Source: Nanobdellota archaeon (lineage in GTDB: Archaea; Nanobdellota; Nanobdellia; Parvarchaeales; Parvarchaeaceae). From it: a stretch of 64,000 bases of DNA. The stretch is from positions 189-64,188 of the forward strand of contig JAJZNV010000016.1 in NCBI GenBank assembly GCA_021852265.1. Reading direction: 5' to 3'. Below are positions 11,066-64,000 of the stretch, one piece after another. The position numbers and the translations under genes were made by a program. The notes beneath the pieces were generated by a model that ran no database searches, had not been told where the DNA came from, and saw nothing but the letters and a program-made list of their open reading frames with translations. Position 1 is the stretch's first letter; each line of letters begins with the position of its first letter.

Positions 11066-11155
11066 AAAAGATAGGGAATTCACTATAATAAAAACTTAAT
11101 GTCTGTGATAATCGGTATAATACTCTTATATTAATTTTCATAAAAAACGTTTTAT

Positions 11156-11860: not shown

Positions 11861-11870
11861 GATAATCATC

Positions 11871-13335: not shown

Positions 13336-13427
13336 ATATACAATAATCCTTGTCTCGTATTAATAATTTAAGTTGATAAACCAGGCAGACAGAAAGAAAT
13401 AAATTAGATTAAAATTGTAGTTAGAGT

Positions 13428-36752: not shown

Positions 36753-39700
36753 ATGTCATTAAATAAATTTACACAAATTAGAAAGTCATTTGGTAAGCGC
36801 TCTCAGTCTGCTCTTGAATACATGATGACCTATGGATGGGCAATAGCAATAATCGTCATAGTTGCTGCGGTACTCTATACTTTCGGAGTGTTCACACCGT
36901 CATCTTCAGCTCAACAAAATACTATAACCGGATTTGGGAATGGTGTAAAGGTTGTTTCGGTGTCTGCAAACGCATCAGACATGGAGTTTTTTATTTTGAA
37001 TGAATATGGTTACGCAATAAATCTTACCCAGGTAAGTGTCTTAAGCGGAAGTAGTGTATCTTCTAGCTTTACATGCATAAACACGTTCTTGCAGGCAAGT
37101 CAGTCCTCCAAGTGTATAGTCAAGGGTTTATCTCTCCAAAATCCGACTACTGCGAAGGTGACTATAACTTTTTCCGTTACACAGGGGTCATTTACACAGG
37201 TGATCTCCTCACAAGGAACGGTCTCGCTTCAGCTTACATCGATTTCAATACCGAGCACGACTTTTACAGAGTCCGGGCTTCCCACAGGTACGAACTGGAG
37301 CGTCAGCTACATAGGATCAAAAGCATATTCGACATCGTCCTCGATTTCCTTTACCTCATTTAGTGGAACGTACTCATTCACCGTCGCATCCTTTTCATCG
37401 ATATCTGCTGGCTGCACAGCCGAATATAATCCATCGCCCGCATCCGGTTCCTTAATCGCCGGCAGTTCGGAAGCCATAGTTTTTACTGCAGTTGCGCCTT
37501 CATGTGTAACTACCTTTACAGAATCTGGGCTTACTTCTGGTGCTCAATGGACAGTTGTGTATGGGGGTTCTTCGAATACTTCTACATCAACAAGCTTAAC
37601 TATAACGACTGGAAGTGGCAATTTTTCATTTTCCGCATCAGCATCTTCATCGCCGTCGCCATCAAGTGGATGCGCGGCACAAAATGCACTTCTCCCCACA
37701 TCAGGATATTTAACTGCAGGGTTGTCAAAATCAGAAACATTTACATCCACAACCCTCTGTACGACCACTTTTGTCGAATCTGGTTTGCCTATTGGTACTA
37801 AGTGGACTGCAGTCTTTAATGGCTCAAGTAACTCATCAACCACAACTACCATAAAGGTTACTACATTCAGCGGCAGTGCGGATTTTACCCCATCACAGCC
37901 GGCAAACTCCTCAAATACTATGACTTCGATTTATACCTCGAATGATACATCAGGCGTGCCGGTGGCTGCAGGTTCTTCTGTTTCGACGGTTTATTATCCT
38001 GCTCTATACTCAAAAAATATATACGTGAGCAGCTTTACTCAACAGGGTGTGCAGGCTATAAACGGAACATCCGGTTCGATATATTTCACGACGGGAATCG
38101 CAAGTGGATGGCCCTATTCTAAATTCCCCGGAGGTGTATCAATCTCCCCGGATGGCAACTACCTTTACGTTATAACACAAAACAGTGCGACCTCTCGTTC
38201 GCAGTGCGAAAACGGTCTTTTTACAATTTCCGCATCAACTGGAACAATCTTAGGATTTGCATGTACACGTGCTATAATAAATTCAGAAAGTGCCCTTTAT
38301 CCATTCACCGCTCCTCCTGCAATGACCCCCAATGGGGAATACGCCATAATCCCTGAATATTCTAACAACTCTGTTTCCATGGTAAATGTATCCTATCATA
38401 ATAGCACTATGTGGGTGCATAGTCTTTTAGGGTTTGCTGGGCCAGTGTACGCTGTCACATCCTTAAATGGGCAGTATGCGTATATCACTAACTTCGGATC
38501 AGATTACGTTTCTGTGATAAGCATGTCCACCTTTAGTCGCATTAAAAACATAACTACTGGAAGCTCACCTGAAGCAATAGCAATAAACCCGAACGGCAAG
38601 TTTGCATACGTTACAGAAGACGGCAGCCATGAGATAGCAGTTATAAACCTCACCTCTAATACTGACATAGCAAATATAAGCATAGGCATGACATCTGGTC
38701 CTATTGCAGTGACTCCAGATGGGAAATTCGCGTATGTAGGTGGTCAAAGCCTCTATATAATTGCGGTCATAAACCTTAGTTCGAATTCGGATATGACAAA
38801 TATAAGTGTGCCGAGTCCATCACGCATGCTAGCGATAACTCCGAATGGCAAGTATGTATATTCTACAGATTCTAACGTTAATACCGCAGTAGCCATAAGT
38901 ACAGCATCAAACTCGGTTTCTGCGACAATAACCATTGGGAATAATCCGGATGGTTTGGCCATTACTCCAGACAGCAAATACGTTTATATCGCAAACTATG
39001 GCAATGCATCCTTATCTGTAATAAATACATCCTCTAACGTCGTTTTTAAGACTATGTTTGGTATGGGTATTACTCCCAGAGTATTGACAGCCACAAACGC
39101 TGGGGCTTATGTAGCCAGCTTTTATAACTCTTATATCTCATACATAAGCGCCAATACCTTCTCTGCAACAGACGCAATGTCGGTAGGAACCTCGAATAAT
39201 CTTAATAATTACGCTTCTATGTATAATCCGAGCAATAACATGGTAAGCTTGCCGAACAATAAATTCCTATACTTGTTAAGCAACCCTATGAGTGCAATAT
39301 ACGCCTACAACTTGACGACAAATAAATTTTTGTATGCGATGGACACCCCGGGAAATCCCGCGTGGGTTAGCACCTCAGTGGACAGCAAATATATGTATTC
39401 CATTAGTTCTAACTTTGGAGGGCCATTCTATATAGATAATTCGACAAGCGGGGCTTTTGTAAAAGCAATATCCGGATTTAATACGCCCTCTTCGATAGCA
39501 GTTGCGAATTCAAGTAAATATATTTTGTTATCTAGTCCCGGTGGACTATTTTTGATAAATGGTTCCACAACGCTTCCGACATATAAGGGAGAACTTCCGA
39601 TAATCGGAGAGGATAGCCTGCTTTCTCCAGATCATAAAGTATTATACACCTTCTCCGGATATGGTTTTGGGACTTATCAAGCTCTATCAGTGATAAATGT

Positions 39701-41306
39701 TTCGTCTGGACAGCAACTGAGTTACTTCAATCTCGCAAATCTGAGCAGCCCCTCTTATTATAATACCCCTGCGTATCCATCGCTATCTTCAGATGGAAAA
39801 GAACTTTGTATACCTGAGACGACCTCAAATGCACTTACTCTAATAAACACCTCAAACTTTAATTCACTGCGTTTGATCGCATCTATTGCATTAAGTGAGA
39901 GTAACCCAGTTTCATGTGTGTTTACTCCAAATAACAAATATGTGCTAGTTTCAGATGTTGGCTCAAACTTTATGACGGTCATAAATCTGTCCGGCGGAAG
40001 CATAACTACAAAGACTCTACCTTTGGGAGTAGGCGGCGAAGGTGGGGTTGCAGTGTCACCAGTTGGAAATTATGCATTTGTAGAAGGCTATGGTGATCAT
40101 AATTTAACAGTAATAAACACAACTACTATGCAAGAAATCAAGAATATAAGCACTGGACAAAGCTGGAATCTTGGTTACTTGCCACAGCAAATAATAGTGT
40201 CCCCAAACGGAAGGTATGTTTATGTCGCGGCTTTCTCTAATCCTTATATAACTGAGTTCAATGTATCCTCTCTATCTTATGTTACAAATATTTATACCGG
40301 CGCGGGTAACAATGTGCCAGCTATGATAATGTCAAATAATGGTAAGTATATCTATGCCTCTGACAATAATTATTATTTCCAGGGGACAAGGGAGGATCTG
40401 GCTGCGATAAATATCTCAAATGGTGCATTCACTATACTTGGTAGGACATATACCACAGTTATAAATGGTTACCCTTCAGTCGCACTGTCTGAATCAAATG
40501 ATAGCAAGTATCTCTATGCAGATTACCAGAGCAGTGCAAATGGGTCTATCTCAATCATAAACGTGTCATCCGTAATTCCGACGACAGTCAAAAATCTAGT
40601 AGATGCAGGTAATTTCTCCCAGATGGCTAATGCTGTCTGGAAAACAGCATACGTCACTGGATATTCAGGAAATGTTCTTGATACAATTAATACGACGGGG
40701 GCAACTTTATCATCGTTTTACGGGATAGGTATAAATCCTAAAAACGTCATTTTTTCGAACAATAATAAATATGCCTATGTTGTAAGCGGGAGTGGCGGAT
40801 TTAACACCCTTGCTATAGTAAACATGACAAAACTGGTGAATAATCTTTCGGTTCCATTCTCTGCCATTATTAAGGGTATACCAATAGGCGGAATCGGTAA
40901 TCCCGTAGAAACACTTACTCCAGACGGCCGCTACTTAATAATTTCGGCCGGCAAATACGTCCTTATAATGGATACTGCGACAGATTCAATAGTAAAGAAC
41001 ATAAGCGCTTCTGGTCTATTCCTAAACTATCAGATGTACGCTACTAACAAATTTGCTTATTTAGCGCCATCTTCTGGCTCGGTTATACCTGTAGTAAACC
41101 TTACGTCTCTAAGTATCTATAAGAACATAACTGATAATGGCGGACCATATTATCTGGCAATGTCTCCGGATAATAATCTGTTATATGCGGTTAATTCTGC
41201 TTCTAATAATACTCTATTGATAATAAATACTACTACAAATGAGGTAGTGGGAAACGTATATGGTTATTTCTCTCCGAACCAGGTCTCAAATTTAGTGCAC
41301 ATCTGA
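36753..41306 (+). CDS. giant (1517 aa) class III signal peptide / pilin-module protein with ESGLP..W repeats and multiple YVTN-type beta-propellers
   Basis: The N-terminus KRSQSALEYMMTYGWAIAIIVIVAAVLY matches the archaeal class III signal motif (Q-x-S/A-x-E...L). The pilin-size module carries C-x12-C-x-V. Three modules of about 85 aa start (T)TF(T/V)ESGL. About 1,100 aa of 40-residue blades follow (e.g. SPEAIAINPNGKFAYVTEDGSHEIAVINLTSNT). Confidence 0.7.
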   Translation: MSLNKFTQIRKSFGKRSQSALEYMMTYGWAIAIIVIVAAVLYTFGVFTPSSSAQQNTITGFGNGVKVVSVSANASDMEFFILNEYGYAINLTQVSVLSGSSVSSSFTCINTFLQASQSSKCIVKGLSLQNPTTAKVTITFSVTQGSFTQVISSQGTVSLQLTSISIPSTTFTESGLPTGTNWSVSYIGSKAYSTSSSISFTSFSGTYSFTVASFSSISAGCTAEYNPSPASGSLIAGSSEAIVFTAVAPSCVTTFTESGLTSGAQWTVVYGGSSNTSTSTSLTITTGSGNFSFSASASSSPSPSSGCAAQNALLPTSGYLTAGLSKSETFTSTTLCTTTFVESGLPIGTKWTAVFNGSSNSSTTTTIKVTTFSGSADFTPSQPANSSNTMTSIYTSNDTSGVPVAAGSSVSTVYYPALYSKNIYVSSFTQQGVQAINGTSGSIYFTTGIASGWPYSKFPGGVSISPDGNYLYVITQNSATSRSQCENGLFTISASTGTILGFACTRAIINSESALYPFTAPPAMTPNGEYAIIPEYSNNSVSMVNVSYHNSTMWVHSLLGFAGPVYAVTSLNGQYAYITNFGSDYVSVISMSTFSRIKNITTGSSPEAIAINPNGKFAYVTEDGSHEIAVINLTSNTDIANISIGMTSGPIAVTPDGKFAYVGGQSLYIIAVINLSSNSDMTNISVPSPSRMLAITPNGKYVYSTDSNVNTAVAISTASNSVSATITIGNNPDGLAITPDSKYVYIANYGNASLSVINTSSNVVFKTMFGMGITPRVLTATNAGAYVASFYNSYISYISANTFSATDAMSVGTSNNLNNYASMYNPSNNMVSLPNNKFLYLLSNPMSAIYAYNLTTNKFLYAMDTPGNPAWVSTSVDSKYMYSISSNFGGPFYIDNSTSGAFVKAISGFNTPSSIAVANSSKYILLSSPGGLFLINGSTTLPTYKGELPIIGEDSLLSPDHKVLYTFSGYGFGTYQALSVINVSSGQQLSYFNLANLSSPSYYNTPAYPSLSSDGKELCIPETTSNALTLINTSNFNSLRLIASIALSESNPVSCVFTPNNKYVLVSDVGSNFMTVINLSGGSITTKTLPLGVGGEGGVAVSPVGNYAFVEGYGDHNLTVINTTTMQEIKNISTGQSWNLGYLPQQIIVSPNGRYVYVAAFSNPYITEFNVSSLSYVTNIYTGAGNNVPAMIMSNNGKYIYASDNNYYFQGTREDLAAINISNGAFTILGRTYTTVINGYPSVALSESNDSKYLYADYQSSANGSISIINVSSVIPTTVKNLVDAGNFSQMANAVWKTAYVTGYSGNVLDTINTTGATLSSFYGIGINPKNVIFSNNNKYAYVVSGSGGFNTLAIVNMTKLVNNLSVPFSAIIKGIPIGGIGNPVETLTPDGRYLIISAGKYVLIMDTATDSIVKNISASGLFLNYQMYATNKFAYLAPSSGSVIPVVNLTSLSIYKNITDNGGPYYLAMSPDNNLLYAVNSASNNTLLIINTTTNEVVGNVYGYFSPNQVSNLVHI
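37255..38000 (+). repeat. three tandem ~85-aa ESGL(P/T)xGxxW modules (coding repeat)
   Basis: TTFTESGLPTGTNWSVSY..., TTFTESGLTSGAQWTVVY..., TTFVESGLPIGTKWTAVF... Confidence 0.65.
38010..41290 (+). repeat. array of ~40-aa YVTN-type beta-propeller blades (coding repeat)
   Basis: Recurrent pattern (I/V)(A/T)(I/V)(T/S)P(D/N)GK(Y/F)(A/V)Y(V/I)...(S/N)x(I/V)(S/A)VI(N/S). Confidence 0.65.
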
Positions 41307-49806: not shown

Positions 49807-52800
49807 ATGGTTAGGCGCGGCAATGTGCATCCAAAACACAGAAATCAAGCTGCCGTTGATTTTCTTATAAGCTGGGGCTGGGTTATCGCTATTGTGGTCG
49901 TAGCAATGCTTGTATTATTCGACTTAGGCGTATTTAATACTCCTCAGCAGGCTACACTGATAAATGGTTTTCAAAGCGTGCAGGTGGAAGACGCTGGAGT
50001 AAACGGCTCCCTGGCAGTGTTTCAGCTTAATAATCAATTTGGTAGAGACATCAATATAGACAGCATAATGATAACTTCGAATGGAAATGTATTCTCTCCG
50101 TCGACAGTCCAGTGTACCGTCTCACAGTTAACTGCGGGACAATCTGCAGTGTGCAGGGTGCCCTTGTCCCTAAACACGTCAAATTATGAGATCTCAGTCG
50201 CGATAAGATATTCACCATCAACATCAAATACGATATTCTTCTCCAATGGCACAGTCTCTGGCAGATTATCAAATGGTGTTATAAACTTAAACAACGCAAA
50301 TTATTATTTTAGGGAATTAGCTCTGCCAGACGGAGCCACATGGTCAGTCACTCTTGGAGGACTGACTAAAAATGCCACCGTCTCATCCAGTACCGGCGAC
50401 GTAATCTCATTCTCAGCGGCATTCGGGGCTTATAATTATAACGTCAGTAATGTCACATTTAGCGGATGTTCCTCAATTTACCCTTATCCTCTCAATGGTA
50501 TTATAACAGGGGGCGTCACTAAAGATATAGCGTATAATGGCACTTGTCCCACTACATTTACAGAAACAGGATTGGGTCAGTACATTTATGCAACGAACCG
50601 TTATAATAATACTATAGAGGTTATTGATACTGCCACCGACTCAGTTGTACGCAACATAACCTCACAGTCACAACCTGCCGAATTAGCATTAAGCGCAGAT
50701 GACCAATATCTTTATGCTACTAATCTAGACAATGGCAGCGTACAAAAATTCTCAGTGTCTACCGGTGCACTCGTTTCAACGTTTAGTGGTATTAAATCTC
50801 CGTTTATGCTTTCAATCGGCTCAAATGGAGATCTGTATACAATGAATTACTTTGGAAAGTTAGATGTGGTAAATTCGACAACCGGGACAATAATTGTAGC
50901 GAATATGTCCATTGGTGGTATTGGCGCAAATGTTGCAGCGGTACCCAGCAAGGACATCGTGTATGCCACTAATGCAACTTATAACCTTGTATTGTTCGGG
51001 CATAGTTATTGTACTGGTGATGTAGTATATGCCCTAAATAGCACGACTAATACAATAATAACCTCTATTCCTGTTGGAACATGCCCATATGGGGTAGCTG
51101 TTGCACCGAATGGTACATATGCATACGTCGCAAATTTTGTCAGTAATACGACCTCAGTAATAAGCACCGCTACAAACACAGTCGTCGCTACAATAAACGT
51201 TGGTAAGAATCCAAGTGCAGTTGCAGTATCTCCAAATTCCAAATATGTTTATGTCGGAAACCAAGCCAGTAACACAGTCTCAGTAATAAGCACTGCTACG
51301 AATACTGTCATTGCTACGATAAATCTTGGTTCGGGGAAGTCTCCATCTATAGGGGCGTCAATAACAGTAACTCCCGATGGGAGATATGTTTATGTGGCAG
51401 ATCAGCCGGTTGGAAACAATGGTGCAAGTATATCGATAATATCAACTGCGACAAATTCAGTGATTGCCAATTCTAGCCAACAAGACTTTAGTATTATTTC
51501 CGCAGCAACCATAAGTTCTAACCCCTATACATGGAACTGGAGTGTAACTTATGGGGGAAAAACAAAGTCATCTACAAATCAGAGTATAACCTTTAATAGT
51601 AATCTTGGGAATAAGTCTTATTCCGCTATTTCTTCTAAATATATATCGACTTCCTCTATAGATTGTGATGTCTTATACTCACCGAATGTGACTGCGGGAG
51701 AATTTTTGGCAGGATCATCACTGCTAGTCGGTTTTAATTCATCTACTTCATGTACGACGACATTTGTATCCCCCGGGCGCAATTACAACTCTTCACTATA
51801 TGGAACTTCATGGTGGGTTAAATATGGTACTACGAACATTTCTAACTATGTGGGAAAGAATTTTACTTTTACTTCCGCTCAAGGGGGACAAACCATTTAT
51901 GGTAGAATGATTCCATACGTCATACAGGCTACGGGAGGGTATGGCATGAATAACTGTGTGATGGTGCCACCTCTTTATCAAACTGCAGGTTTTACATTCA
52001 ATTCCACATGGTCATGTGACACCTCCTTTTATGAGGATAATCTGCCATCCGACTATAATTGGTCCGTTAGGTATGCTGGCACGGTCCAATGGTCAAAGAC
52101 ACGCTATATAAACTTTACCACCGGCACCGGTGTTTACAATAGAATTTACACGGTTATGTCGAATTCTTCAATCAACGCCTCTGGATTCCATTGTACGACT
52201 GTATATGAGCCGTCTCCAAATTCATCCGGACCACTGACAGCCGGTGACTTTCATCCGCCCGGTGCATCTTACGGAGGTCCCGTCGTAGACTATGTTAGTT
52301 CGACTTCATGCGATACAGCAATAACGACGTTTAATGAAATAGGGATGTTTTCAGGGGCTTCATGGTCAGTATATTATAATGGCACTTTAAACAGCTCTTC
52401 TGCACCGAATAGTATAACATTCTCAAGGGCAGCAGGTAATGTATATTCCTTTTCAGTCCCGGCTCCATCAAACTCGTCTGCAGGGTGTATTACATCTTAC
52501 TCTGCGAACGTTACTTCGGGTAGCCTTACGAGCGGTTCCACTAAGACCATAGGGTTTACTCATTCCACTTCATGTACAACGAAATTTATAGTGGCAGGCC
52601 TGCCACCCAATACTGTATGGCCAGTTACGTTTGACGGAGTAACGAAATATCCCATCGGTTCGTCAGTTACTTTCACTACAACCTCTGGATCGTATTCTTA
52701 TACAGAGGGACCTGTCTATTATCCTCCCGATTGCGTTTACTCACCCGACCTTTCTTCCGGAACGTTAACAGCAGGATCTAATTATTCTGTAACTTACTCT

Positions 52801-54096
52801 GCACCTTCAGGACCAAATTGTCTAATATTTGTTGCAAATTATGGTAGTAACAGTGTATCTGAGATAGACACGGCGACTAATTCATTAGTAGCTACAATGG
52901 GCACGGGTGAGAGTCCTGTGGATATGGCCCTGAATATGGTAAATGATACAATAAATATTGCAGATTACGGACCCTCCGGTGGAACTTGTTTTGTAGGCAA
53001 CTCTGAGGTCTGTTTGATAAACGTAACCACGCGGAAGATAATCACAGGAATCTCCACACCGGGGGTGCGGCAACAGTTCGGAGGAGGACCCACGATTGCA
53101 CTATCCCCTAATGAACAATACACGTACGTTATTGGGCAAGGCCTGAGCTCGCCATTCTATGGATACTTATATATCATAAACAATAAGAATGACCAGCTCG
53201 TTTCAACAATTAATCTAGGTGACAATCCGCTGCCGAGTGGCATAGTGGTTACGCCGAATGGAGAATATGTGTACGTTGTAAATAGCTATGCCCAGTCATT
53301 AATAAAGATAGATACTATAACAAATTCAATAGTTTCTACATTAAATGGAGATTGTGGTACTGGTGGAACAGTGTTGTGTGATCCAAGTGGCATGGCAATG
53401 TCACCTAACGGCAAGTATATCTATATCGCCAATGCCGGAGACAATCATATTACTGTTATAGATACTTCTTCAGGCAGGGACATAAAGAATATTAGTTTGG
53501 GAGCGGGAGTTATACACACTGCTACTGGAATAGCGCTATCGCCAAATGGTTTACTCTATACATCTAATTACTGGGGCAATACGACTGAGATTATAAATGC
53601 AACCTCATATTCAGTAGTTTCTACTGTTAATCTAGGATACGGTACGGAACCAATGGGTATAACAGCACCGACCGCAATCAATGGACAACTCTATGTTTAT
53701 GTTGCATTGTCTAAAGTAGGGAAAGTGGCGGTTTTATCTGCATCCACAAATAGCGTAATAGAGAACATAACCGTAGGCGCTAACCCAGAAGGAATCTACA
53801 GCGTTCCTGAGTTTACAACCTCCTTTGTTGAATCTGGACTCGCATCTGGACTAACATGGTCAGTAACGTATGATAATATAAAATCTAGCTCTGCAAGTGC
53901 AGCTATTGGCATAACGGTTCCAGAGGGAACGTACTACTTTAGTATACCGAATGTGCAGGGTAATTTGGTATGTAATCACCAGCTAGGAGTAGGGACTCAG
54001 TACTATTACGCCCCTTCTCCCGCCTCTGGAAGTGCAGTTGGAGGCAGCACCGAGAACGTCACATTTACAATATACTCTAAAACAGTAAGTTGCTGA
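49807..54096 (+). CDS. giant (1429 aa) class III signal / pilin-module protein with ESGL-type modules and two YVTN beta-propeller regions
   Basis: The N-terminus is HRNQAAVDFLISWGWVIAIVVVAMLVLF. The pilin module carries CTVSQLTAGQSAVCRV. Canonical YVTN blades are present (PYGVAVAPNGTYAYVANFVSNTTSVISTATNTVVATINVGKNPSAVAVSPNSKYVYVGNQASNTVSVISTATNTVIATINLG). The final module is TTSFVESGLASGLTWSVTY. Confidence 0.7.
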   Translation: MVRRGNVHPKHRNQAAVDFLISWGWVIAIVVVAMLVLFDLGVFNTPQQATLINGFQSVQVEDAGVNGSLAVFQLNNQFGRDINIDSIMITSNGNVFSPSTVQCTVSQLTAGQSAVCRVPLSLNTSNYEISVAIRYSPSTSNTIFFSNGTVSGRLSNGVINLNNANYYFRELALPDGATWSVTLGGLTKNATVSSSTGDVISFSAAFGAYNYNVSNVTFSGCSSIYPYPLNGIITGGVTKDIAYNGTCPTTFTETGLGQYIYATNRYNNTIEVIDTATDSVVRNITSQSQPAELALSADDQYLYATNLDNGSVQKFSVSTGALVSTFSGIKSPFMLSIGSNGDLYTMNYFGKLDVVNSTTGTIIVANMSIGGIGANVAAVPSKDIVYATNATYNLVLFGHSYCTGDVVYALNSTTNTIITSIPVGTCPYGVAVAPNGTYAYVANFVSNTTSVISTATNTVVATINVGKNPSAVAVSPNSKYVYVGNQASNTVSVISTATNTVIATINLGSGKSPSIGASITVTPDGRYVYVADQPVGNNGASISIISTATNSVIANSSQQDFSIISAATISSNPYTWNWSVTYGGKTKSSTNQSITFNSNLGNKSYSAISSKYISTSSIDCDVLYSPNVTAGEFLAGSSLLVGFNSSTSCTTTFVSPGRNYNSSLYGTSWWVKYGTTNISNYVGKNFTFTSAQGGQTIYGRMIPYVIQATGGYGMNNCVMVPPLYQTAGFTFNSTWSCDTSFYEDNLPSDYNWSVRYAGTVQWSKTRYINFTTGTGVYNRIYTVMSNSSINASGFHCTTVYEPSPNSSGPLTAGDFHPPGASYGGPVVDYVSSTSCDTAITTFNEIGMFSGASWSVYYNGTLNSSSAPNSITFSRAAGNVYSFSVPAPSNSSAGCITSYSANVTSGSLTSGSTKTIGFTHSTSCTTKFIVAGLPPNTVWPVTFDGVTKYPIGSSVTFTTTSGSYSYTEGPVYYPPDCVYSPDLSSGTLTAGSNYSVTYSAPSGPNCLIFVANYGSNSVSEIDTATNSLVATMGTGESPVDMALNMVNDTINIADYGPSGGTCFVGNSEVCLINVTTRKIITGISTPGVRQQFGGGPTIALSPNEQYTYVIGQGLSSPFYGYLYIINNKNDQLVSTINLGDNPLPSGIVVTPNGEYVYVVNSYAQSLIKIDTITNSIVSTLNGDCGTGGTVLCDPSGMAMSPNGKYIYIANAGDNHITVIDTSSGRDIKNISLGAGVIHTATGIALSPNGLLYTSNYWGNTTEIINATSYSVVSTVNLGYGTEPMGITAPTAINGQLYVYVALSKVGKVAVLSASTNSVIENITVGANPEGIYSVPEFTTSFVESGLASGLTWSVTYDNIKSSSASAAIGITVPEGTYYFSIPNVQGNLVCNHQLGVGTQYYYAPSPASGSAVGGSTENVTFTIYSKTVSC
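50575..51475 (+). repeat. YVTN-type propeller blade array 1 of gene 49807
   Basis: Tandem units of about 120 nt, with near-identical stretches such as tcagtaataagcac(c/t)gctac(a/g)aa(c/t)ac. Confidence 0.65.
51520..52820 (+). repeat. block of ESGL-related ~85-100-aa modules in gene 49807
   Basis: NWSVTYGGKTKSS..., SWWVKYGTTN..., NWSVRYAGTV..., ASWSVYYNGTLNSS..., VWPVTFDGVTKYP..., each ending in a Cys-containing ...S(T/S)SC(T/D)T motif. Confidence 0.55.
52822..53800 (+). repeat. YVTN-type propeller blade array 2 of gene 49807
   Basis: LIFVANYGSNSVSEIDTATNSLVATMGTGESP ... PSGIVVTPNGEYVYVVNSYAQSLIKIDTITNSIVSTL ... PSGMAMSPNGKYIYIANAGDNHITVIDTSSG. Confidence 0.65.
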
Positions 54097-57100: not shown

Positions 57101-58610
57101 TGTTCCCGGGACAAATCAGGTGTACTCCATGGATCTTCCTTACACCTCTTATCCTTCTTTACCCGGTATATCTGTCCAGGTAAATTATGGTAGTGTACTT
57201 ATGAATTCGACTCTCGGTCGTTTGCCCACTTTACCACAACCTATTATGATAACTAATCAAAATAGTACTAATATAAGCATTGGTCCGATAGACTGGATAA
57301 GATTTAGGGCATACCCTCCGAACGGTATAGCACCCATCATTGTCGTTGGGGCAATAAAGACAGCAGCAGTGACGACGTTTGTGGAATCCGGCTTGCCACA
57401 GCAGTTAATTTCAGGTTTGAACAGTACATCACTGAATTGGTCAATAACCTACGACGGAGTTACTAAATTACCCCTGCGTTATAATGTGTGTTTCGGTGGA
57501 CACTGTTCTGTATGGTATACGGAAAAAATCAATTTCTCTACGCTTTCTGGAGCATTTAGCTATTCCGCGTCCATACCTTACAATTCCTCAAATGGCTGCA
57601 CTACATTTTATTCTCCGAATCCGTCTTCTGGATCAGCGGCTACCGGCAACGTACAGACAATAACTTTTTCAGGAGTCACATCCTGCAATCAGGTATTTGT
57701 AACCTACTCTAACGGCGTTAGCATAATAAATGGCTCTTCAAACAAAGTGATTAGAAATATAACGGCATTGCCGAAGTCTCTCGGTTATCTCGCGGTGACT
57801 CCCAACGGGAAGGAGTTGTACGTCGGCAGTTCAGCTGCCTCATCAGTTTCTGTAATAAACCTTTCATCTTACAAGGTAATAAAAAATATCTCCGCAGCTT
57901 TAAACGTGCAGGGGTTAGCAGTGACCCCGAATGGTAAATATGTATACATAGTTAATAGCAACAATGATTCTGTTCAGATTATAAGTACCTCTACAAATTC
58001 CGTTGTCGCGGCTATAAGTGTACCATGTTCACCACAGAATATTGCAATAACACCTAATGGGCGATATGCATATGTGATTAACTGTATAGGTTCGGACGGC
58101 TCCAATGTCTCAATTATAGACACGGCATCAAATACCATAATAAAGAGCACGGGTAATCTATCCGCTCTAGTCGGAGAACCCTTTTATCCAACTGGAATAA
58201 CGATGACCCCTAACGGAAAATATGCTTATATCAGCACGGAAAGCCAATACATCCCAATTTTGAATGCATCCTCAGGTGCATTTTTAGGCTACATAAATAC
58301 TAGCATTGGCAATTTCGGAACATGCGATGCAAACAGCATGGTGATAACCCCAGATAGCCGGTATGGTTACGTTACCTGTGGCCCCGAGACCGTGGCCAAG
58401 ATTAATTTATCCACGGGCACATTTATTAAAAATATAACTGTCGGCGACCCTCAAGGACCTATGGCTATATCACAAAACGGTAAATATATTTATGTCACTA
58501 GCTACTCTCCCAATTTAATCTCTGTTATAGCCACTTCAACTGATTCGGTAGTGTCAACTATAAATCTGGGAGCCGCACCTGAGTATATCGCCGCTGGATT
58601 TCGGCCCTAA
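54150..58610 (+). CDS. giant (1486 aa) pilin-module protein with ESGLP modules, DUF2341-like + ConA/LamG-like region and two YVTN propellers
   Basis: The N-terminus PNGQLGINIVLWAAVIVFIIVALFFLG is a divergent class III-like signal. The pilin module carries CQKATIAPLGTTQCQV. ESGL modules include FMESGLPASTQWTMVF, AFTESGLPSGLSWRVTF and TFVESGLASNAKWTVTY. A DUF2341-like segment reads ...IEFFYSNGTIIPSWLESGNSNTATKTIYWLRINGGIPANTAIAVYIGFG...FYDNFAGTAINTNKWT. Propeller blades include PSGIAYDPANGDMYVV, PSGVAYNPANNDIYVADSAANTISVISS and, later, LAVTPNGKYVYIVNSNNDSVQIISTSTNSVVAAI. Confidence 0.65.
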   Translation: MSVIIAMYPNGQLGINIVLWAAVIVFIIVALFFLGIIPFPPSAASHQQSATNIIQLGAAKANAQTLQFSLQNMKALSVTPLHFIISIDGQNYSNVACQKATIAPLGTTQCQVSGNFSGKTSISVFLKVFFTINSTGSTYNSTASLIVPVQQSSIQSLQNNTSTVFTAFMESGLPASTQWTMVFNGQFNTSLGNQINFISSPGNYTFNISSIQVGNCVYYASLSSGKIAAGLVNYVSFSSQCSSSGSGNTTVTTAFTESGLPSGLSWRVTFASVINSSKTNAITFSTSAGLYQYSVSPSSNSTLNCTTTYSPSPSGGNINAGTTNSITFSASNACNLVITTFVESGLASNAKWTVTYDNINNDTYTSTSNKITFSTIKGTFAYSVPSVSNSSASCTTTYTPLPASGNLQAGLTQTVAFTSSTLCSGVYGIVYSVPITVANLQDSPTPSPFQVNVTIDSAAYSSYEASNLQNIEFFYSNGTIIPSWLESGNSNTATKTIYWLRINGGIPANTAIAVYIGFGSLTTNFLSTRATGEAPQLSSVYGEYDNGANVFNFYDNFAGTAINTNKWTSTGSITNTAISTIKVTYAPQDITYDSMNGNVYVSNSYPYSVNPLFDIVSVINSSSNNVIKNISVNGEPFGIAYNPVNHCIYVGLASDSPSVSVISTITNTIIKNITGIGLQPSGIAYDPANGDMYVVKGLSNNVAIIDSSTNTVIKTINVSNGPSGVAYNPANNDIYVADSAANTISVISSSSNTVIKNITAVSEPKELTYDPVNKDMYVSNAYTNTVGVINSSNRVIKNITLGTFKAGSLLGITYDSANGAVYVANTYANTTMIINTTSNLLVSSVKVGVEPSGVAYNNVSGNVYVANTGSNTVSVIPSSQIHVNNGLTVLPAGIGTNVPPIYSNSVFANGIIDFYGKIPAGACGSLGNPGCPLKKYIYAFAGVASPSNPNSNMSGIGEFSGVYGIRISNLSKKFGDQAIAIPGFVPGTNQVYSMDLPYTSYPSLPGISVQVNYGSVLMNSTLGRLPTLPQPIMITNQNSTNISIGPIDWIRFRAYPPNGIAPIIVVGAIKTAAVTTFVESGLPQQLISGLNSTSLNWSITYDGVTKLPLRYNVCFGGHCSVWYTEKINFSTLSGAFSYSASIPYNSSNGCTTFYSPNPSSGSAATGNVQTITFSGVTSCNQVFVTYSNGVSIINGSSNKVIRNITALPKSLGYLAVTPNGKELYVGSSAASSVSVINLSSYKVIKNISAALNVQGLAVTPNGKYVYIVNSNNDSVQIISTSTNSVVAAISVPCSPQNIAITPNGRYAYVINCIGSDGSNVSIIDTASNTIIKSTGNLSALVGEPFYPTGITMTPNGKYAYISTESQYIPILNASSGAFLGYINTSIGNFGTCDANSMVITPDSRYGYVTCGPETVAKINLSTGTFIKNITVGDPQGPMAISQNGKYIYVTSYSPNLISVIATSTDSVVSTINLGAAPEYIAAGFRP
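54640..55420 (+). repeat. three tandem ESGLP..W modules in gene 54150
   Basis: See the motifs listed for the CDS. Each module ends with a Cys-containing (S/T)(S/N)xC. Confidence 0.6.
55890..56790 (+). repeat. YVTN-type propeller array 1 of gene 54150
   Basis: Six or more blades with the pattern P(S/F)G(I/V)(A/T)Y(D/N)(P/S)xNGxxYV(A/S/V)(N/D)...N(T/N)V(S/A/G)VI(N/S/D)(S/T)(S/T)(S/T)N. Confidence 0.6.
57690..58600 (+). repeat. YVTN-type propeller array 2 of gene 54150
   Basis: LAVTPNGKELYVGSSAASSVSVINLSSYKVIKNI, LAVTPNGKYVYIVNSNNDSVQIISTSTNSVVAAI, IAITPNGRYAYVINC..., ITMTPNGKYAYIST..., MVITPDSRYGYVTC..., MAISQNGKYIYVTSYSPNLISVIATSTDSVVSTI. Confidence 0.6.
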
Positions 58611-58855: not shown

Positions 58856-60172
58856 ATGAATAATTTGATTATTATAGGAATTTTGGTTATAATAGCAATG
58901 ACTGCAGTAGGGGGGATATTTTTATTTAAGTTGACAGGCCCGGTCAGACACGTAACGGAAGTTGTACAACCGGGTAATCTTTCAGACACTAATACTAGTG
59001 CAGTTCCTGCCCTCCTCCCCGGTAGCGTGTACTCAGTTATAACTCCTCTCTCAAACACAGGTTTTACTGTATACAATGTGTCTGGATACAAAGATTATGT
59101 GATATCTCCAGGCAATGTCGGCTCGCTTACATTAAATGTAACAAGAGCTATTGCCGGCGGAACTTCAACAAACTATACAAATCCCTTACCAATGAATATC
59201 ACCGATACCGGTGGCTTCGGATTTTATTCTTCGGCCAATCAGACCTTCCCCGAAGAAGGGAGTTATGCAACTTTTATACCGTACGCTAACATTACAAATT
59301 CTACGGCAAACTATTATTGTTCTGGAAATTCCTGTCAACCGGCCATTGAGATGATAATTTTCGGGTTTCAAGGATTTGTGCCTTCCCCTTCTGTTACGGG
59401 TATTACATGCGGCGTAAATAAATTAAACATAAGTTTATTTAACGATCTCGGTTACTCTGCGCTCGTAAAAGGTGCTACTGCTTATATTTACGTCACCGAG
59501 AACAATGGCACTCTTAAGCGTTCAAACATGACTTTATCGGCTTTAGCGAACAATTCTATTATTAGTGGCGCAGGGGAGCTATTCTCATTTACAGGGAGTG
59601 CTTGCGGAACTGACGCGAAGAATTATTCTTTTTACGCGTCAATAAATTATAGCCAGTTCGGGTCTAATCTTACACAGCTCTCGAAGGGCGAAGTAAAAGG
59701 AAACGCTCCGCAGCCCGTTCCAAAGAACGGGTTTGAAGTAAAACTGTATGTACCCCTTCTTTCTAATAACAAAGGTGCACCGGTTCTAAAGAATTTCAGC
59801 GGCGGCACACCAAACAATGTATCTGCTTTTTTTACGTCAGAGACTCTTGCTGATTTTTTTATGAGTGGTGTCAGTGTTTCAAACAATTCTGGAATTATAA
59901 ATGCGACGTTTACGGCTAATGTGCCGATCTATATGGTTCACCCCGGCATAAGCGTATCTGCTAATCCATTGTTTAGGGTGTTGTCTGTAAATCAATCCGG
60001 TTCTTTTGATTCGACTTTCAACATCGCTTCAAATGCTACTAAAGGAACTTATTGGATGTATTCAAAGGTTTCTGGCCAGTCAGGTCTGTTTTCTTATGCC
60101 CCTTATTATCTTCTTACAATCGGGAACACGCCGTATAACGGAAGCCTACCTTCCCCACCCGTATATTCTTAA
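58856..60172 (+). CDS. membrane-anchored or secreted N-x-S/T-rich surface protein
   Basis: N-terminal hydrophobic segment LIIIGILVIIAMTAVGGIFLF and many sequons. No recognised domain. Confidence 0.5.
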   Translation: MNNLIIIGILVIIAMTAVGGIFLFKLTGPVRHVTEVVQPGNLSDTNTSAVPALLPGSVYSVITPLSNTGFTVYNVSGYKDYVISPGNVGSLTLNVTRAIAGGTSTNYTNPLPMNITDTGGFGFYSSANQTFPEEGSYATFIPYANITNSTANYYCSGNSCQPAIEMIIFGFQGFVPSPSVTGITCGVNKLNISLFNDLGYSALVKGATAYIYVTENNGTLKRSNMTLSALANNSIISGAGELFSFTGSACGTDAKNYSFYASINYSQFGSNLTQLSKGEVKGNAPQPVPKNGFEVKLYVPLLSNNKGAPVLKNFSGGTPNNVSAFFTSETLADFFMSGVSVSNNSGIINATFTANVPIYMVHPGISVSANPLFRVLSVNQSGSFDSTFNIASNATKGTYWMYSKVSGQSGLFSYAPYYLLTIGNTPYNGSLPSPPVYS

Positions 60173-60194: not shown

Positions 60195-60716
60195 ATGGAG
60201 GCAAATATAAACTTAAATGAAAGCGACTTAAAGGCGTTATCCAGTTCCCAGCGTCTTAGGATAATGAAATCCATATCATATAAGCCAAAGACTCCTTCAG
60301 ACATAGCTGAAGAACTTGAGAAAAAGACGCCGACCATAATAGAGCACTTAAATCTATTGATAGCAAATGGGTTTGTAGTGAAACTGTCCACGAATAACAG
60401 GAAATATGTTTTTTATACTTTATCAGAAAAAGGGAAATCTCTGGTCAATTCCTCAAAAAAGATAACTATTATTTTACCGATAGCGCTAATCTTCATATCT
60501 TTGGCTAGTTTACTAATAATAATTAATTTTGCAACTTCGCAACAAGTAGTTGCACAAGTAGTCGTAGCGAGTGCTAGTTCTACAGGTGGGCCACAACCGT
60601 CTCAGAACGTGATTACTTCTCTTAGTTTTTTGTTCTCATTTGGTATTTTATTTGCTGGGACAGGTATATTGTTCGCGTATTTTTTACTTAATAGACGACT
60701 GCTGGCGACGATGTGA
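60195..60716 (+). CDS. membrane-anchored ArsR-type winged-helix transcription regulator (two C-terminal TM helices)
   Basis: LKALSSSQRLRIMKSISYKPKTPSDIAEELEKKTPTIIEHLNLLIANGFVVK is an ArsR/SmtB-like HTH. The hydrophobic helices are ITIILPIALIFISLASLLIIINF and LSFLFSFGILFAGTGILFAYFLL. The track ORF's longer N-terminus (from 60006) overlaps the previous gene and was rejected. Confidence 0.7.
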   Translation: MEANINLNESDLKALSSSQRLRIMKSISYKPKTPSDIAEELEKKTPTIIEHLNLLIANGFVVKLSTNNRKYVFYTLSEKGKSLVNSSKKITIILPIALIFISLASLLIIINFATSQQVVAQVVVASASSTGGPQPSQNVITSLSFLFSFGILFAGTGILFAYFLLNRRLLATM

Positions 60717-60735
60717 GTTTTCCCCATTCTTTATG

Positions 60736-60743
60736 TTTAAATT
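60736..60743 (+). promoter_or_regulatory. TATA box (TTTAAATT) of the pilin-LamG gene
   Basis: Ends 23 nt upstream of the ATG at 60766, which supports that start over the track start at 60640. Confidence 0.5.
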
Positions 60744-60765
60744 CATAAACTTGCATAACATCCTT

Positions 60766-62031
60766 ATGTTTATGTCCAAGAAAAGCAATGCGAATAAATC
60801 TTCCTATATATCTAAATACACAACTAAACTGACGACTCTTTCTTCGAGGCATTCTCAGTCAGCCCTAGAGTACATGATGACGTATGGCTGGGCCATATTA
60901 ATCATCGTGATAGTAGCGGCAGGATTATACAGTCTCGGGATATTTTCACCAACAAATTCAGCGTCAACTTCGATAACAGGATTCACCGGGTTGGAAACTC
61001 TTACCGCGGTCTGCTATTCTAATCTTACTGGCTCAGGGTATTCACAGAATATCGGACTAGTGTTGACGTTTGGTAATGGCATTGGAAGTACAATAAATAT
61101 AACCTACATAAATGTAACGAACTCCGGCGTATCAAAATCTTTCAGCATAAAAAGCAATGATATAGTCTCTCCTAATGGAAATGCTGGCATCTTCGAAGTT
61201 CCAAATGTATGTCCACAGAGTACGGGGTCAAGATATTCTGCAATAGTTACGATAACATATACCGAACCCGGACAGACCTTTAGTGGACCATACTATTCTT
61301 CGGGAACAGTTTCTGGCACAACTCTTGCAGGTTCTGGTTTTCCCAGTACAATAGGATTAGTAGCATTTTGGCCGTTTCAGGAAGGAAGCGGAACAATTGT
61401 TCATGATTTGAGTGGCAATGGATATAACGGTAACATTCTTGGCACCGCTACATGGACATTTAATCCGAGATTCGGTTATGTTTTTGATTTTAATGGGGGA
61501 ACAGACATTAATACGACTTATGCTCAGACGGCAGTTACCCAATACACAGTTTTTGCATGGGTTAACATGAGTGGTAGTAGCGGTGTAATCACACAAGATC
61601 GTGGTTCAGGCACTGGTCACAGTCTAACTTTATTCACAAGTAGCGCAGGTTGTGGTAACGCAGACGGCGAATCAGCCTTTGTGGATGATTCAAATGGTAT
61701 ATGTACTGGAGTACTCGACGGGGGCGGTTCATTAATAAAACAGTGGTATTCTCTAGCCGGGGTATTTAATGCTCCTGCAGGAAGCACAGTTAATGCAAAT
61801 CAGTTTCCGCAAGAGTTCTCAGTCTTTGTAAATGGAACACCCGTTTCAGCAGGTACAAGTGGTGCAGGCTCGGATACTTCTCCTCTGACCGGACTCGGTG
61901 GTCTAGTAATCGGATACAGCATAGCATGGAACTCTTTTTTTGTGGGGCAGATGACAAACATCCATATTTACAATCGCACTTTAACTCAGAATGAAATAAG
62001 AGAAATGACTCTTTATAATACATTAATCTGA
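60766..62031 (+). CDS. modular pilin: class III signal + pilin module + LamG/ConA-like lectin domain
   Basis: SRHSQSALEYMMTYGWAILIIVIVAAGLY is nearly identical to the gene 36753 signal. The C-terminal half (LVAFWPFQEGSGTIVHDLSGNGYNGNILGTATWT...YTVFAWVN...WYSLAGVF...VFVNG...IGYS...FFVGQMTNIHIYNRTLTQNEI) follows the Laminin-G-3/ConA-like pattern. Confidence 0.7.
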   Translation: MFMSKKSNANKSSYISKYTTKLTTLSSRHSQSALEYMMTYGWAILIIVIVAAGLYSLGIFSPTNSASTSITGFTGLETLTAVCYSNLTGSGYSQNIGLVLTFGNGIGSTINITYINVTNSGVSKSFSIKSNDIVSPNGNAGIFEVPNVCPQSTGSRYSAIVTITYTEPGQTFSGPYYSSGTVSGTTLAGSGFPSTIGLVAFWPFQEGSGTIVHDLSGNGYNGNILGTATWTFNPRFGYVFDFNGGTDINTTYAQTAVTQYTVFAWVNMSGSSGVITQDRGSGTGHSLTLFTSSAGCGNADGESAFVDDSNGICTGVLDGGGSLIKQWYSLAGVFNAPAGSTVNANQFPQEFSVFVNGTPVSAGTSGAGSDTSPLTGLGGLVIGYSIAWNSFFVGQMTNIHIYNRTLTQNEIREMTLYNTLI

Positions 62032-62036
62032 AGTTA

Positions 62037-62044
62037 TTTATAAT
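62037..62044 (+). promoter_or_regulatory. TATA box (TTTATAAT) upstream of the micropeptide ORF
   Basis: Ends 21 nt upstream of the ATG at 62065. Confidence 0.4.
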
Positions 62045-62064
62045 AGTACCTGTCTAAAATATCA

Positions 62065-62157
62065 ATGGTAAACAATAGAAAAAAGAAAGTTGAACCAAAT
62101 TCCACGGAAAATGAATCCGGAGGATGCGGCTGCGGTGGAAACTGCGGATGTAATTAA
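62065..62157 (+). CDS. 30-aa Gly/Cys-rich micropeptide (not in ORF track): MVNNRKKKVEPNSTENESGGCGCGGNCGCN
   Basis: The ORF has an ATG and a TAA stop, and a TATA at the window's typical leaderless spacing. The region is locally GC-rich (ggatgcggctgcggtggaaactgcggatgt) within an AT-rich spacer. Confidence 0.35.
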   Translation: MVNNRKKKVEPNSTENESGGCGCGGNCGCN

Positions 62158-62215
62158 GTCCTAAATATACATAAAACGGTGAGTATAAGTTAGGGATAGT
62201 GAGTATTTTAAGCGT

Positions 62216-62575
62216 ATGGTAAAAAACAAAGAACAGCTTGTGAACAAATTGGTAGATATCCTATATAATCCTGAAGCAGACAAGTTATTACCCGAGTCTG
62301 AAATAAAACTCATTGCCAATGATATTTATGATGTACTTAAAAAAACTCGTGTTGAAAAGCTTTTGTTGTTTTACTCTCAAAGAAAAAATGAAATAGATGG
62401 CCTCATCCGCAGCTATATTTATTCTCATCCCGGACTAGTTTTAAAGATAGTTTTAGGCGGCACGGGCGCTGCAAGAAAACTTCTTTATAGTACCATGATT
62501 TCAGCAGAGGAGAAACTATACCGGGCAGATTATAAAATCAAAGATTTGAATGAACTGTTAAACTCAGATATATAA
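62216..62575 (+). CDS. hypothetical protein
   Basis: 119-codon ORF with no motif. Confidence 0.45.
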   Translation: MVKNKEQLVNKLVDILYNPEADKLLPESEIKLIANDIYDVLKKTRVEKLLLFYSQRKNEIDGLIRSYIYSHPGLVLKIVLGGTGAARKLLYSTMISAEEKLYRADYKIKDLNELLNSDI

Positions 62576-62828
62576 AAATCTTACTAAGAATATTTATCCT
62601 ACTTATCCTACTTTTAGATAACGCACTCAAAATATAAATTTTATATTATATAACTACATATAATGGTAATAAATAAATTGATATAATATTATTATAATTA
62701 GAAATTTATTTGTGAAGTTTATATCATTATACTAATAAATATAGATAATTATATATCGATAAAATATCATTTATTATATTATAAAATAAAGCAATAAAGT
62801 TTTAAATATAATCAGCGCATATACTTAT

Positions 62829-63320
62829 TTGGTGAATAAAATGGATGTATATTCAGAGGAAGGGGAAAGTTCAGATTGTCAGTCATTAGAAGCAAAGATC
62901 GAATTAAAAAAGCAATCAGCTAAAGATAAAGGCATATACCGTAAGGCTTATGAGATACTTTTGAAATATGGATCTAATATCGGCGGACACACCTCTATGT
63001 ACGAAGAAAGGGAAATAACAGGTAAAAAGTTTCTTGGTTTGTTAACTACAAGCAGGTGTAAATTTGCTATAACATATGACGAATACACAGATGCTATATG
63101 TGATATCCATACACGTTATCTTAGCATCTTTAAGGAGGACAGGGTCGTCTTTCATACATCTGCTAGAGACTGGATCCCGACAGTGTTTGGTAGGAATGAA
63201 CCTGTAATCGATATATATACGGATAATGCTGATTGGGAAAGCCATTTGGATGAACTTTTTTTGCATGGGCCGAGACATAAACAAAAACAGGAAGAATTGC
63301 GCAAGAATTTTAATTTGTAA
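62829..63320 (+). CDS. hypothetical protein (start ambiguous: TTG 62829, GTG 62832 or ATG 62841)
   Basis: ORF follows TATA tttaaata (62801..62808). The TTG and GTG codons lie at the leaderless spacing and the ATG is 33 nt downstream. Confidence 0.45.
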   Translation: MVNKMDVYSEEGESSDCQSLEAKIELKKQSAKDKGIYRKAYEILLKYGSNIGGHTSMYEEREITGKKFLGLLTTSRCKFAITYDEYTDAICDIHTRYLSIFKEDRVVFHTSARDWIPTVFGRNEPVIDIYTDNADWESHLDELFLHGPRHKQKQEELRKNFNL

Positions 63321-63404
63321 TAAATGTGCAGGAAGTATACTTGTAACATAAACGTAATTATATCGCAGAAAAGTTATAAATACTATAATTAGCTATATCT
63401 AACT

Positions 63405-64000
63405 ATGGTAACAACTATACAGATAAGCAAAGATATAAGAGATAGACTCGAAAAATTTAAAATGCATAAACGGCAGTCAGTAAATGAGGTTATAGAAGGC
63501 CTTATAAACAATGTTTTGCTATTAGACAGCGAAATGCAACTCGTTAGGGATAATAAGCAAAATAAACTTTCTAAAGAGGATCTCTTAAATAGTGCTTTAC
63601 GTGCTTCTGGCTTTTTAGCAAAACCTGGAGAACGGGTATTCCATATGCGCACAAAATATGTAAAAAATAAGCTGAAAGGGCTTAAATGGACGCCTGAAAA
63701 TGTAAATTATATAGGGGGTTTGATGTTTATAGAAGATGCGATTAAGACACACCCTAGGGAGACTAGAAGAAGGATAGAGATAGATCTTGCTCAGGCTGCC
63801 GGGGAGGATCAGTATGGTGAATATCTATCAGAAGCAGAATCAACTGAGTATAAGAAAGAGATTATTGATAAAAATGAAAAACTCAAAGAACATGCAAGAG
63901 ATGAGGTTGAAATTTACAAAGAACTGGTTCCACAGGATAAACAGCCAATTGAGCCATGCGGGCTTACAGAAGATGAGCGCAGGGAATTAGAATGGCTTAG
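63405..64000 (+). CDS. ribbon-helix-helix (CopG/Arc-like) N-terminal domain protein, 3' end beyond the window (partial; not in ORF track)
   Basis: My translation is open from the ATG at 63405 to the window end (198 codons): MVTTIQISKDIRDRLEKFKMHKRQSVNEVIEGLINNVLLLD... TATA tataaata (63375..63382) ends 23 nt upstream. The listed antisense ORF 63389..63652 is therefore probably a shadow. Confidence 0.55.
   Translation, partial: MVTTIQISKDIRDRLEKFKMHKRQSVNEVIEGLINNVLLLDSEMQLVRDNKQNKLSKEDLLNSALRASGFLAKPGERVFHMRTKYVKNKLKGLKWTPENVNYIGGLMFIEDAIKTHPRETRRRIEIDLAQAAGEDQYGEYLSEAESTEYKKEIIDKNEKLKEHARDEVEIYKELVPQDKQPIEPCGLTEDERRELEWL

Follow-up and report, generated by a model that had tools for sequence, protein, structure and literature searches.

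A type IV pilin module joined to a LamG domain in a Nanobdellota archaeon, and the family of DPANN proteins to which it belongs

We analysed a 64,000-nucleotide stretch of DNA from a Nanobdellota archaeon (GenBank assembly GCA_021852265.1, contig JAJZNV010000016.1, positions 189 to 64,188; hereafter the window), in which the plus-strand gene at 60766..62031 (421 residues plus stop, taken from the list of open reading frames) encodes a protein that joins a type IV pilin module to a LamG/concanavalin A (ConA)-like domain. The product is, in our view, probably a modular type IV pilin of the archaeal kind whose LamG cargo is displayed as an adhesin on a filament. Judging from the sequences of its relatives, the pilin-LamG arrangement is not rare and is the dominant architecture of a large DPANN family, abundant in databases and essentially uncharacterized. 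This family-wide pattern, which takes in giant proteins encoded nearby, is a more interesting result than the single gene.

Architecture of the pilin-LamG protein

Alignments of the protein with 55 and then with 119 database relatives (56 and 120 sequences) split it into a conserved N-terminal region of about 155 residues and a weakly conserved C-terminal region. The conserved region is preceded by a basic, hydrophilic leader, MFMSKKSNANKSSYISKYTTKLTTLSSRHS (residues 1 to 30, 60766..60855; all parts of the protein are given on the plus strand), with a predicted prepilin-peptidase cut after Ser30, and it begins with the mature N-terminus and hydrophobic α1 helix, QSALEYMMTYGWAILIIVIVAAGLY (residues 31 to 55, 60856..60930), which has Glu at position +5. 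Read from the family alignment, the processing site is of class III type: the charged leader, MFMSKK...SRHS, runs into the site R-H-S/Q-S-A-L-E-Y (the slash marks the cut) and from there into the helix, and the consensus of the family is [KR]-[AGS]/Q-[SG]-A-[LM]-E-Y, with some 22 hydrophobic residues behind it. In both alignments the Q, the E, and a YGWA motif are nearly invariant and the helix columns are invariant or nearly so, the conserved stretch as a whole reading S/QSALEYMMTYGWAILIIVIVA..LYSLGIF.P from the last residue of the leader onwards. The leader is kept in frame in ten relatives (P0004-P0013), as TTKLTT..S[KR]HS/QSALEY; relatives without cargo carry [KR]-[AGS]/Q; and the subgroup to which the present protein belongs combines [KR]-H-S/Q with an unusually long conserved leader, which in this protein measures 28 to 30 residues. 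A class III-type site, which a sequence-only reading of the window took as a requirement for its pilin call, can thus be read from the alignment, and its motif is conserved across the family, as is the hydrophobic helix behind it.

The helix, which AlphaFold2 places at residues 33 to 56, leads into the pilin head, an eight-stranded β-sandwich at residues 56 to 186 (60931..61323) that was delimited with AlphaFold2, Foldseek, and the alignments. Two cysteines in the head, Cys83 and Cys149, are invariant, and its signature, YTEPGQ.F.GPY...GTVSGT, corresponds to YTEPGQ.F.GPY.S.G..SGT across the family. In the AlphaFold2 model of the full protein the sandwich is well supported between residues 69 and 185 (predicted local distance difference test [pLDDT] of about 85), and a model of the N-terminal 170 residues alone again shows the helix and eight strands, at a mean pLDDT of 74.7. 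When this module model was compared with the PDB by Foldseek, the top matches were archaeal type IV pilus subunits, namely, 6w8u from Pyrobaculum arsenaticum (E=1.9e-4) and 8fk7 from P. calidifontis (E=3.4e-4), with the AAP pilus subunit of Sulfolobus acidocaldarius (8q30) at rank 5. A sequence profile of the cargo-less members also found 8fk7 as its best PDB match, at a marginal E=0.014. Three lines, the pattern of the processing site, the fold, and the pilus-operon context of relatives (next section), thus identify the roughly 155 residues after the leader as a type IV pilin module composed of an α1 helix and an immunoglobulin (Ig)-like β-sandwich head; the assignment rests on these lines and not on a curated family. 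In an NCBIfam scan of the full protein (E<=0.1), only a spurious dctM match was returned, and the bacterial prepilin cleavage/methylation motif (IPR012902), whose NCBIfam model we take to be TIGR02532, was not matched. Since it has no match to a motif of this type, the protein falls outside the set of modular pilins that is defined by the bacterial motif, although it resembles a modular pilin in its working.

Conservation within the family ends at a Gly/Ser-rich linker, TLAGSGFPSTIGL (residues 187 to 199, 61324..61362), which is also a place of low model confidence, residues 192 to 208 being disordered in the AlphaFold2 model (pLDDT <50). The cargo-less pilins of the family stop at a conserved GT.SG. 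strand, which is exactly where this linker starts. Behind the linker, which is short and flexible, follows a LamG/ConA-like jelly roll at residues 200 to 421 (61363..62028), on which Pfam, a PDB profile search, and Foldseek agree. Specifically, the Pfam model Laminin_G_3 (PF13385) matches residues 245 to 411 over profile positions 4 to 150 of 151, with E=2.7e-12 and a score of 47.5 bits, above the curated threshold of 27.6. The family profile, searched against the PDB, finds domain 4 of AbnA (5hon, 5e-9), tetanus toxin Hc (~4e-8), pentraxins, and sialidase lectin modules, and the full model, compared by Foldseek, matches lectin domains of trans-sialidases (1e-6), domain 4 of AbnA, and clostridial toxin Hc at E values of about 1e-6 to 1e-4. 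PilC of Streptococcus sanguinis stands at Foldseek ranks 10 and 19 (7oa8, E=1.2e-5, and 7oa7, 3.1e-5). AlphaFold2 models the domain as rich in β-strands, at lower confidence than the head. A significant match to ConA-like folds, for which the sequence-only reading had asked, is therefore given by all three methods, and its proposal of a pilin-like module joined to a ConA-like domain is supported.

The LamG domain may bind glycans, to judge from its sequence relationships. Within it, Cys296 and Cys313 enclose a subgroup-specific loop, GCGNADGESAFVDDSNGIC (residues 296 to 313, 61651-61704), which is kept in the relatives P0002 and P0003, is modelled at low confidence, and is a candidate for binding a ligand or a metal. 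In most paralogues (e.g., P0007, P0008, P0058, and P0065) the LamG core is followed, at the very C-terminal end, by a strand motif, L..WWPLNGT..DYSGNGNNG; in the subgroup of the present protein the equivalent motif, FWPFQEGSGTIVHDLSGNGYNG (61363-61440), stands before the core, an arrangement that gives the impression of a circular permutation or of what is left of a second LamG repeat. N-glycosylation sequons are not enriched in the protein, with 8 observed and 7.4 expected from composition.

One pilin scaffold, its cargo, and its pilus operons

A word-indexed database search returned 609 relatives; the few that have a source name are called "LamG domain-containing protein" or "hypothetical protein" and come from Candidatus Parvarchaeota. 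In an exhaustive phmmer search with the 170-residue module, 2094 representative clusters matched at E<=1e-3 and 188 at E<=1e-10, and in all matches listed the module lies at the N-terminus, in proteins of about 145 to 1109 residues. At least 553 loci were located by a genome scan, and individual genomes hold many paralogues. The source taxa are Parvarchaeota, including ARMAN-4 and ARMAN-5, bins labelled "Nanoarchaeota," Micrarchaeota, Woesearchaeota, and Aenigmatarchaeota. Among the 119 closest relatives, Pfam assigns PF13385 to 84, DUF2341 to 10, and Laminin_G_2 to 3. The family thus combines one scaffold with exchangeable cargo, in which sequence matches recognize variants of LamG, DUF2341, and arrays of YVTN β-propellers that reach about 1500 residues.

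To relate this family to pilus genes, we scanned all open reading frames of 87 fetched loci with a hidden Markov model (HMM) of the module. The scan yielded 113 module-bearing open reading frames, 97 of them complete; among these 97, 35 are 350 to 450 residues long and 11 exceed 600 residues, and 24 are cargo-less, with 144 to 173 residues from the start of the module. In three loci (L060, L057, and L054), cargo-less pilins lie directly 3' of an ATPase of the T2SSE family (PF00437, E=4e-38 to 1e-31). Between the ATPase and the pilin stand two T2SSF platform genes in L060 and L057, both confirmed by Pfam, and in L054 two open reading frames that match these by size only, having had no Pfam scan. 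Archaeal pili of clades 1 and 2 have been described with this layout, a single ATPase and two TadC-like genes (Makarova 2016, PMC4858521). The module family is thus genetically tied to pilus operons through its stand-alone pilins of about 150 residues. An earlier Walker-A/T2SSE motif scan of the window and the 87 loci had matched L060 alone; it was too strict, and L057 and L054 were confirmed later by Pfam. The prepilin peptidase family Peptidase_A24 was found neither in the window nor in the three pilus loci.

Several ATPase-sized neighbours in Parvarchaeota loci were rejected as pilus genes, since Pfam identifies them as SecD/SecF or tRNA synthetases. In loci of Parvarchaeota type (L055, L039, L048, and L083/L084), cargo-less pilins lie a few kilobases from SecD/SecF and do not adjoin a pilus ATPase. 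The short-pilin operon of L057 is preceded (positions 1-2499) by a gene for a protein of more than 833 residues with a von Willebrand factor A domain, which recalls the cargo of the same type in S. sanguinis PilB and in PilY1.

The sequence-only reading had also remarked that the signal peptide of the pilin-LamG protein is shared almost verbatim with a giant protein encoded at 36753..41306, and had raised the possibility that recombination had homogenized the two genes there. The strings quoted in that reading all occur in the sequence, and the likeness is real: BLASTP aligns residues 28 to 73 with residues 15 to 61 of the giant, with 33 of 47 positions identical (70%, E=2e-10), far beyond chance. 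It is, however, not confined to the signal peptide. Whereas pairwise BLASTP detects only the first 47 residues of the similarity, the module HMM spans both helix and head, so that the whole module of about 155 residues is common to the two proteins, and the N-terminus concerned is family-wide and nearly invariant in the 120-sequence alignment. The giant at 36753 (1517 residues) carries a complete module at residues 15 to 167 (36795..37253, plus strand; HMM positions 1 to 154, E=5e-32), and a second giant at 49807..54096 (1429 residues), with the N-terminus NQAAVDFLISWGWVIAIVVVAML, carries a diverged one at residues 11 to 156 (49837..50274, plus strand; HMM positions 1 to 150, E=2.9e-18). The remainder of both proteins matches β-propellers of the YVTN/lactonase type in Pfam and NCBIfam. 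Because the HMM matches their N-termini over the whole length of the module, both giants appear to be modular pilins themselves, with β-propellers as cargo. Their size class recurs in members of 989 to 1452 residues in L024, L044, and L058. A third giant (54150-58610, with DUF2341 and YVTN/NHL repeats) is without the module and has the N-terminus YPNGQLGINIVLWAAVIVFIIVALFFLGIIPFPP, which bears a loose resemblance to a class III signal in degenerate form.

Homogenization of 60766 and 36753 by recombination or recent gene conversion is ruled out by the DNA itself. In the shared stretch, 72% of the nucleotides are identical; 29 residues agree between the proteins, but 18 of these are written with different synonymous codons, and no exact run is longer than 11 nucleotides. 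Since synonymous codons differ and shared runs are short, the similarity of the two N-termini reflects selection on the protein and not recent gene conversion. A different pattern is seen among paralogues within single metagenome bins, where the helix regions are 80 to 93% identical in nucleotides and head and cargo lie at a baseline of about 50%. In one Parvarchaeota bin, two pairs (L010 with L011 and L006 with L011) even share whole modules at about 90% nucleotide identity with cargo that cannot be aligned. These comparisons suggest that module and cargo are shuffled or that the helix evolves in concert; the few pairs that combine nearly identical modules with unrelated cargo argue that shuffling does occur in the family.

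Proposed working, alternatives, and known systems

In the working that we propose, a class III signal peptidase, of the PibD/FlaK or EppA type, would cut between Ser30 and Gln31. By its helix, the protein would then be taken up by the pilus machinery into a filament that consists largely of short pilins, and the bulky LamG domain would be displayed there as a low-abundance, probably tip-located subunit, acting as an adhesin, most plausibly for glycans on the host archaeon or in the matrix. Cleavage, incorporation into a filament, display at the tip, and adhesion are all steps that we infer from the sequence and its models.

Several observations weigh against this proposal. The structural likeness to pilins is of modest extent, with Foldseek TM-scores of 0.40 to 0.47 for the module, and the full AlphaFold2 model reaches a pLDDT of only 65.9, the LamG part being of mediocre confidence. 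No curated Pfam or NCBIfam model matches the pilin module (Pfam searched on the module at E<=1). With His at -2, Ser at -1, and its unusually long leader, the protein departs from the classical archaeal [KR]-[GA] site. Finally, no peptidase, ATPase, or platform gene was found among the open reading frames scanned in the window, and no pilus machinery lies within 10 kb of five homologues bearing LamG or DUF2341.

The closest parallel to the proposed working is found in bacteria, where the modular pilins PilB and PilC have been described (Raynaud 2021, PMC8179133; Shahin 2023, PMC9934059). Like PilC and other bacterial modular pilins, the present protein combines a class III signal, a pilin moiety, a linker, and a ConA-like lectin module, and its pilin moiety (residues 31 to 186) is joined by the short linker to a domain that is not specific to pili. 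The parallel drawn by the sequence-only reading is apt also in view of the two PilC structures among the Foldseek matches. There are, however, clear differences. The pilin moiety has the archaeal type of Ig-like head known from Pyrobaculum and Sulfolobus and does not match the bacterial prepilin motif, on which the published survey of modular pilins, limited to bacterial species, was keyed (PMC8179133). Moreover, PilC has an additional Ig-like module that the archaeal protein is without, the PilC gene belongs to the pil locus while the archaeal gene stands alone, and glycan binding by PilC has been shown by experiment, whereas the archaeal protein is known from its sequence and models.

The main rival to a filament-borne adhesin comes from archaea. 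The bindosome of Sulfolobales comprises proteins with class III signals and functional C-terminal domains that are encoded far from the machinery, a principle that a preprint extends to many substrate-binding proteins (bioRxiv 10.64898/2026.04.22.720090). By analogy with these sugar-binding proteins, signal and module might serve only to process the LamG domain and to fix it to the cell, either in the membrane or on a short pseudopilus-like stub at the surface, with no long pilus involved. The bindosome proteins GlcS, AraS, and TreS, which have been proposed to functionalize type IV filament machineries, likewise carry a class III signal and helix followed by a binding domain and are encoded apart from the assembly machinery. 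The gene contexts of our family fit such a display well: LamG and DUF2341 members were found in five contexts as solo genes amid housekeeping, toxin-antitoxin, and restriction genes, and this scattering of single genes away from the machinery is as in the preprint. So do the many paralogues per genome, and cargo of up to about 1500 residues would be awkward in the body of a filament. On the other hand, bindosome proteins have their functional domain directly after the helix, while the present family keeps a full globular pilin head, which it has in common with the short pilins encoded in pilus operons, and the 80 to 93% nucleotide identity of the helix across paralogues within genomes would be expected of proteins that assemble together in a single filament core. 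The cargo differs as well, since in the bindosome it is the substrate-binding domain of an ABC transporter, encoded beside the transporter genes, and here it is LamG with no transporter adjacent; the text of the preprint makes no mention of LamG, lectins, or β-propellers. On balance, we regard anchoring of the bindosome kind as unlikely, though as the alternative to be taken most seriously.

Considerably less probable is an ordinary secreted or membrane-anchored lectin, in which the N-terminus would be a Sec signal or anchor and its likeness to pilins superficial. Such a protein would agree with the lack of a match to any curated pilin model, with His and Ser at -2 and -1, atypical for class III, and with the plain N-terminal membrane helices of other surface proteins encoded nearby (54150, 58856, and 22183). 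It would leave unaccounted for the invariance of Q-S-A-L-E-Y with its Glu at +5, the charged residue before the cut across the family, the archaeal pilus subunits that are the best structural matches, and the place of the short members in operons with ATPase and platform genes. Least probable of all is a surface hydrolase of glucanase type (GH16-like) directed at polysaccharides of host or matrix, since, although the ConA-like lectin/glucanase superfamily includes glycoside hydrolases and an arabinanase domain is among the best PDB matches, that match is to a non-catalytic carbohydrate-binding domain (domain 4, 5hon), Pfam reports Laminin_G_3 and no hydrolase family, and the protein has no GH16-type E-x-D-x-x-E motif.

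Returning to the modular pilin, which we prefer, two sets of archaeal proteins from the literature stand close to it. Large DUF2341 proteins of clade 1 (Epd-like) archaeal pilus loci have been predicted to be tip adhesins (Makarova 2016, PMC4858521). As in our family, an adhesin-like surface protein is there tied to a pilus system with one ATPase and two TadC-like genes, the layout of L060 and L057, and DUF2341 is also a cargo of our module in the 10 relatives mentioned. Unlike those proteins, which are separate accessory factors, the adhesin studied here is covalently fused to a pilin module, and its cargo is LamG. An expansion of LamG-like jelly rolls has been noted in Mia14 and other DPANN archaea, some of them tied to type IV pilus loci, with a proposed role in interaction with the host cell (Golyshina 2017, PMC5498576). 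In the passages of that article that we consulted, the proteins are not described as pilin fusions or as carriers of class III signals, and Mia14 is a member of the Micrarchaeota, whereas the closest relatives of the present protein are Parvarchaeota. The sequence-only reading knew of no description of a lectin-bearing pilin for archaeal pili. In the literature searched we found no description of an archaeal pilin-LamG, pilin-lectin, or pilin-concanavalin fusion, so that this statement stands as far as the fusion is concerned; it needs tempering in that the architecture is abundant and that an expansion of LamG with links to pili had been noted (PMC5498576).

Genomic setting and biological meaning

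The reading frame of the pilin-LamG gene extends over 60640..62031 on the plus strand, and the ATG at 60766 gives the 421-residue product. The true start may instead be the ATG at 60772, because close homologues begin with MSKKS, as would the resulting protein of 419 residues. A protein called on an ENA contig (P0001) is 99% identical to the one encoded in the window. About 25 to 30 nucleotides 5' of both candidate start codons, a TATA-like box, GTTTAAAT, can be read from the sequence (60735..60742, plus strand), and this spacing suggests an mRNA that is leaderless or has a very short leader.

The neighbours of the gene are an ArsR-type regulator, a 438-residue surface protein, and small open reading frames without assignment. 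The regulator, a winged-helix protein with a C-terminal membrane segment, lies directly upstream (60201..60716, plus strand; Pfam HTH_5, E=1.9e-9). As the order of regulator and LamG pilin is also kept on a related contig (L081), this membrane-anchored protein is a possible candidate for a regulator of the pilin gene. The surface protein (58856-60172), likewise found upstream of the LamG pilin on L081, has 5.25 N-glycosylation sequons per 100 residues and an ordinary N-terminal membrane helix; the module HMM matches it weakly and in the β-sandwich head only (E=1.8e-5). Downstream, at a distance of 35 nucleotides from the pilin gene, a plus-strand open reading frame encodes a Cys/Gly-rich peptide of 27 residues, MVNNRKKKVEPNSTENESGGCGCGGNCGCN (62066-62149), which has its counterpart in a 30-residue gene called on L081 (4091-4183).

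The GC content of the window falls to 0.327 directly after the pilin gene (62001-64000), and on L081 the region 3' of the pilin (4000-14057) contains a nucleotidyltransferase/HepT toxin-antitoxin pair, a type II restriction-modification fusion enzyme, and AAA_15/21 ATPases. Owing to this drop in GC and to the toxin-antitoxin and restriction genes on the related contig, the pilin gene seems to be situated at the border of a variable or defence island. Elsewhere in the window, a cluster of four genes (4983-8548) encodes a 208-residue protein with a pilin-like N-terminus, ARQTSSTILGIIPIIIIVIVILYSF, a KaiC-like ATPase (6276), a fusion of a KaiC-like domain with a small GTPase of Ras/Arf type (6943), and a Roadblock/LC7 protein (8174). 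The cluster may be a regulatory module; none of its proteins matches the module HMM.

DPANN archaea are ultra-small and live mostly attached to other archaea. To our knowledge, the way in which they recognize and hold their hosts is largely unexplained, and while pilus-like connections have been imaged, we know of no identification of their adhesive parts. It is tempting to speculate, as a possibility that we put forward only tentatively, that Parvarchaeales and related DPANN archaea use one pilin scaffold as a display platform for a large repertoire of adhesins that diversifies fast, with cargo and scaffold reshuffled through recombination at the level of modules, and that this repertoire determines to which host cells these symbionts attach via the pilus-like connections in acid-mine biofilms. 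A pilin scaffold with exchangeable lectin-like and propeller domains would offer concrete candidates for the attachment molecules, and it would extend the modular pilin principle, documented so far for bacteria, to archaeal pili. In addition, a large set of database entries that are now annotated as "LamG domain-containing" or "hypothetical" would become interpretable.

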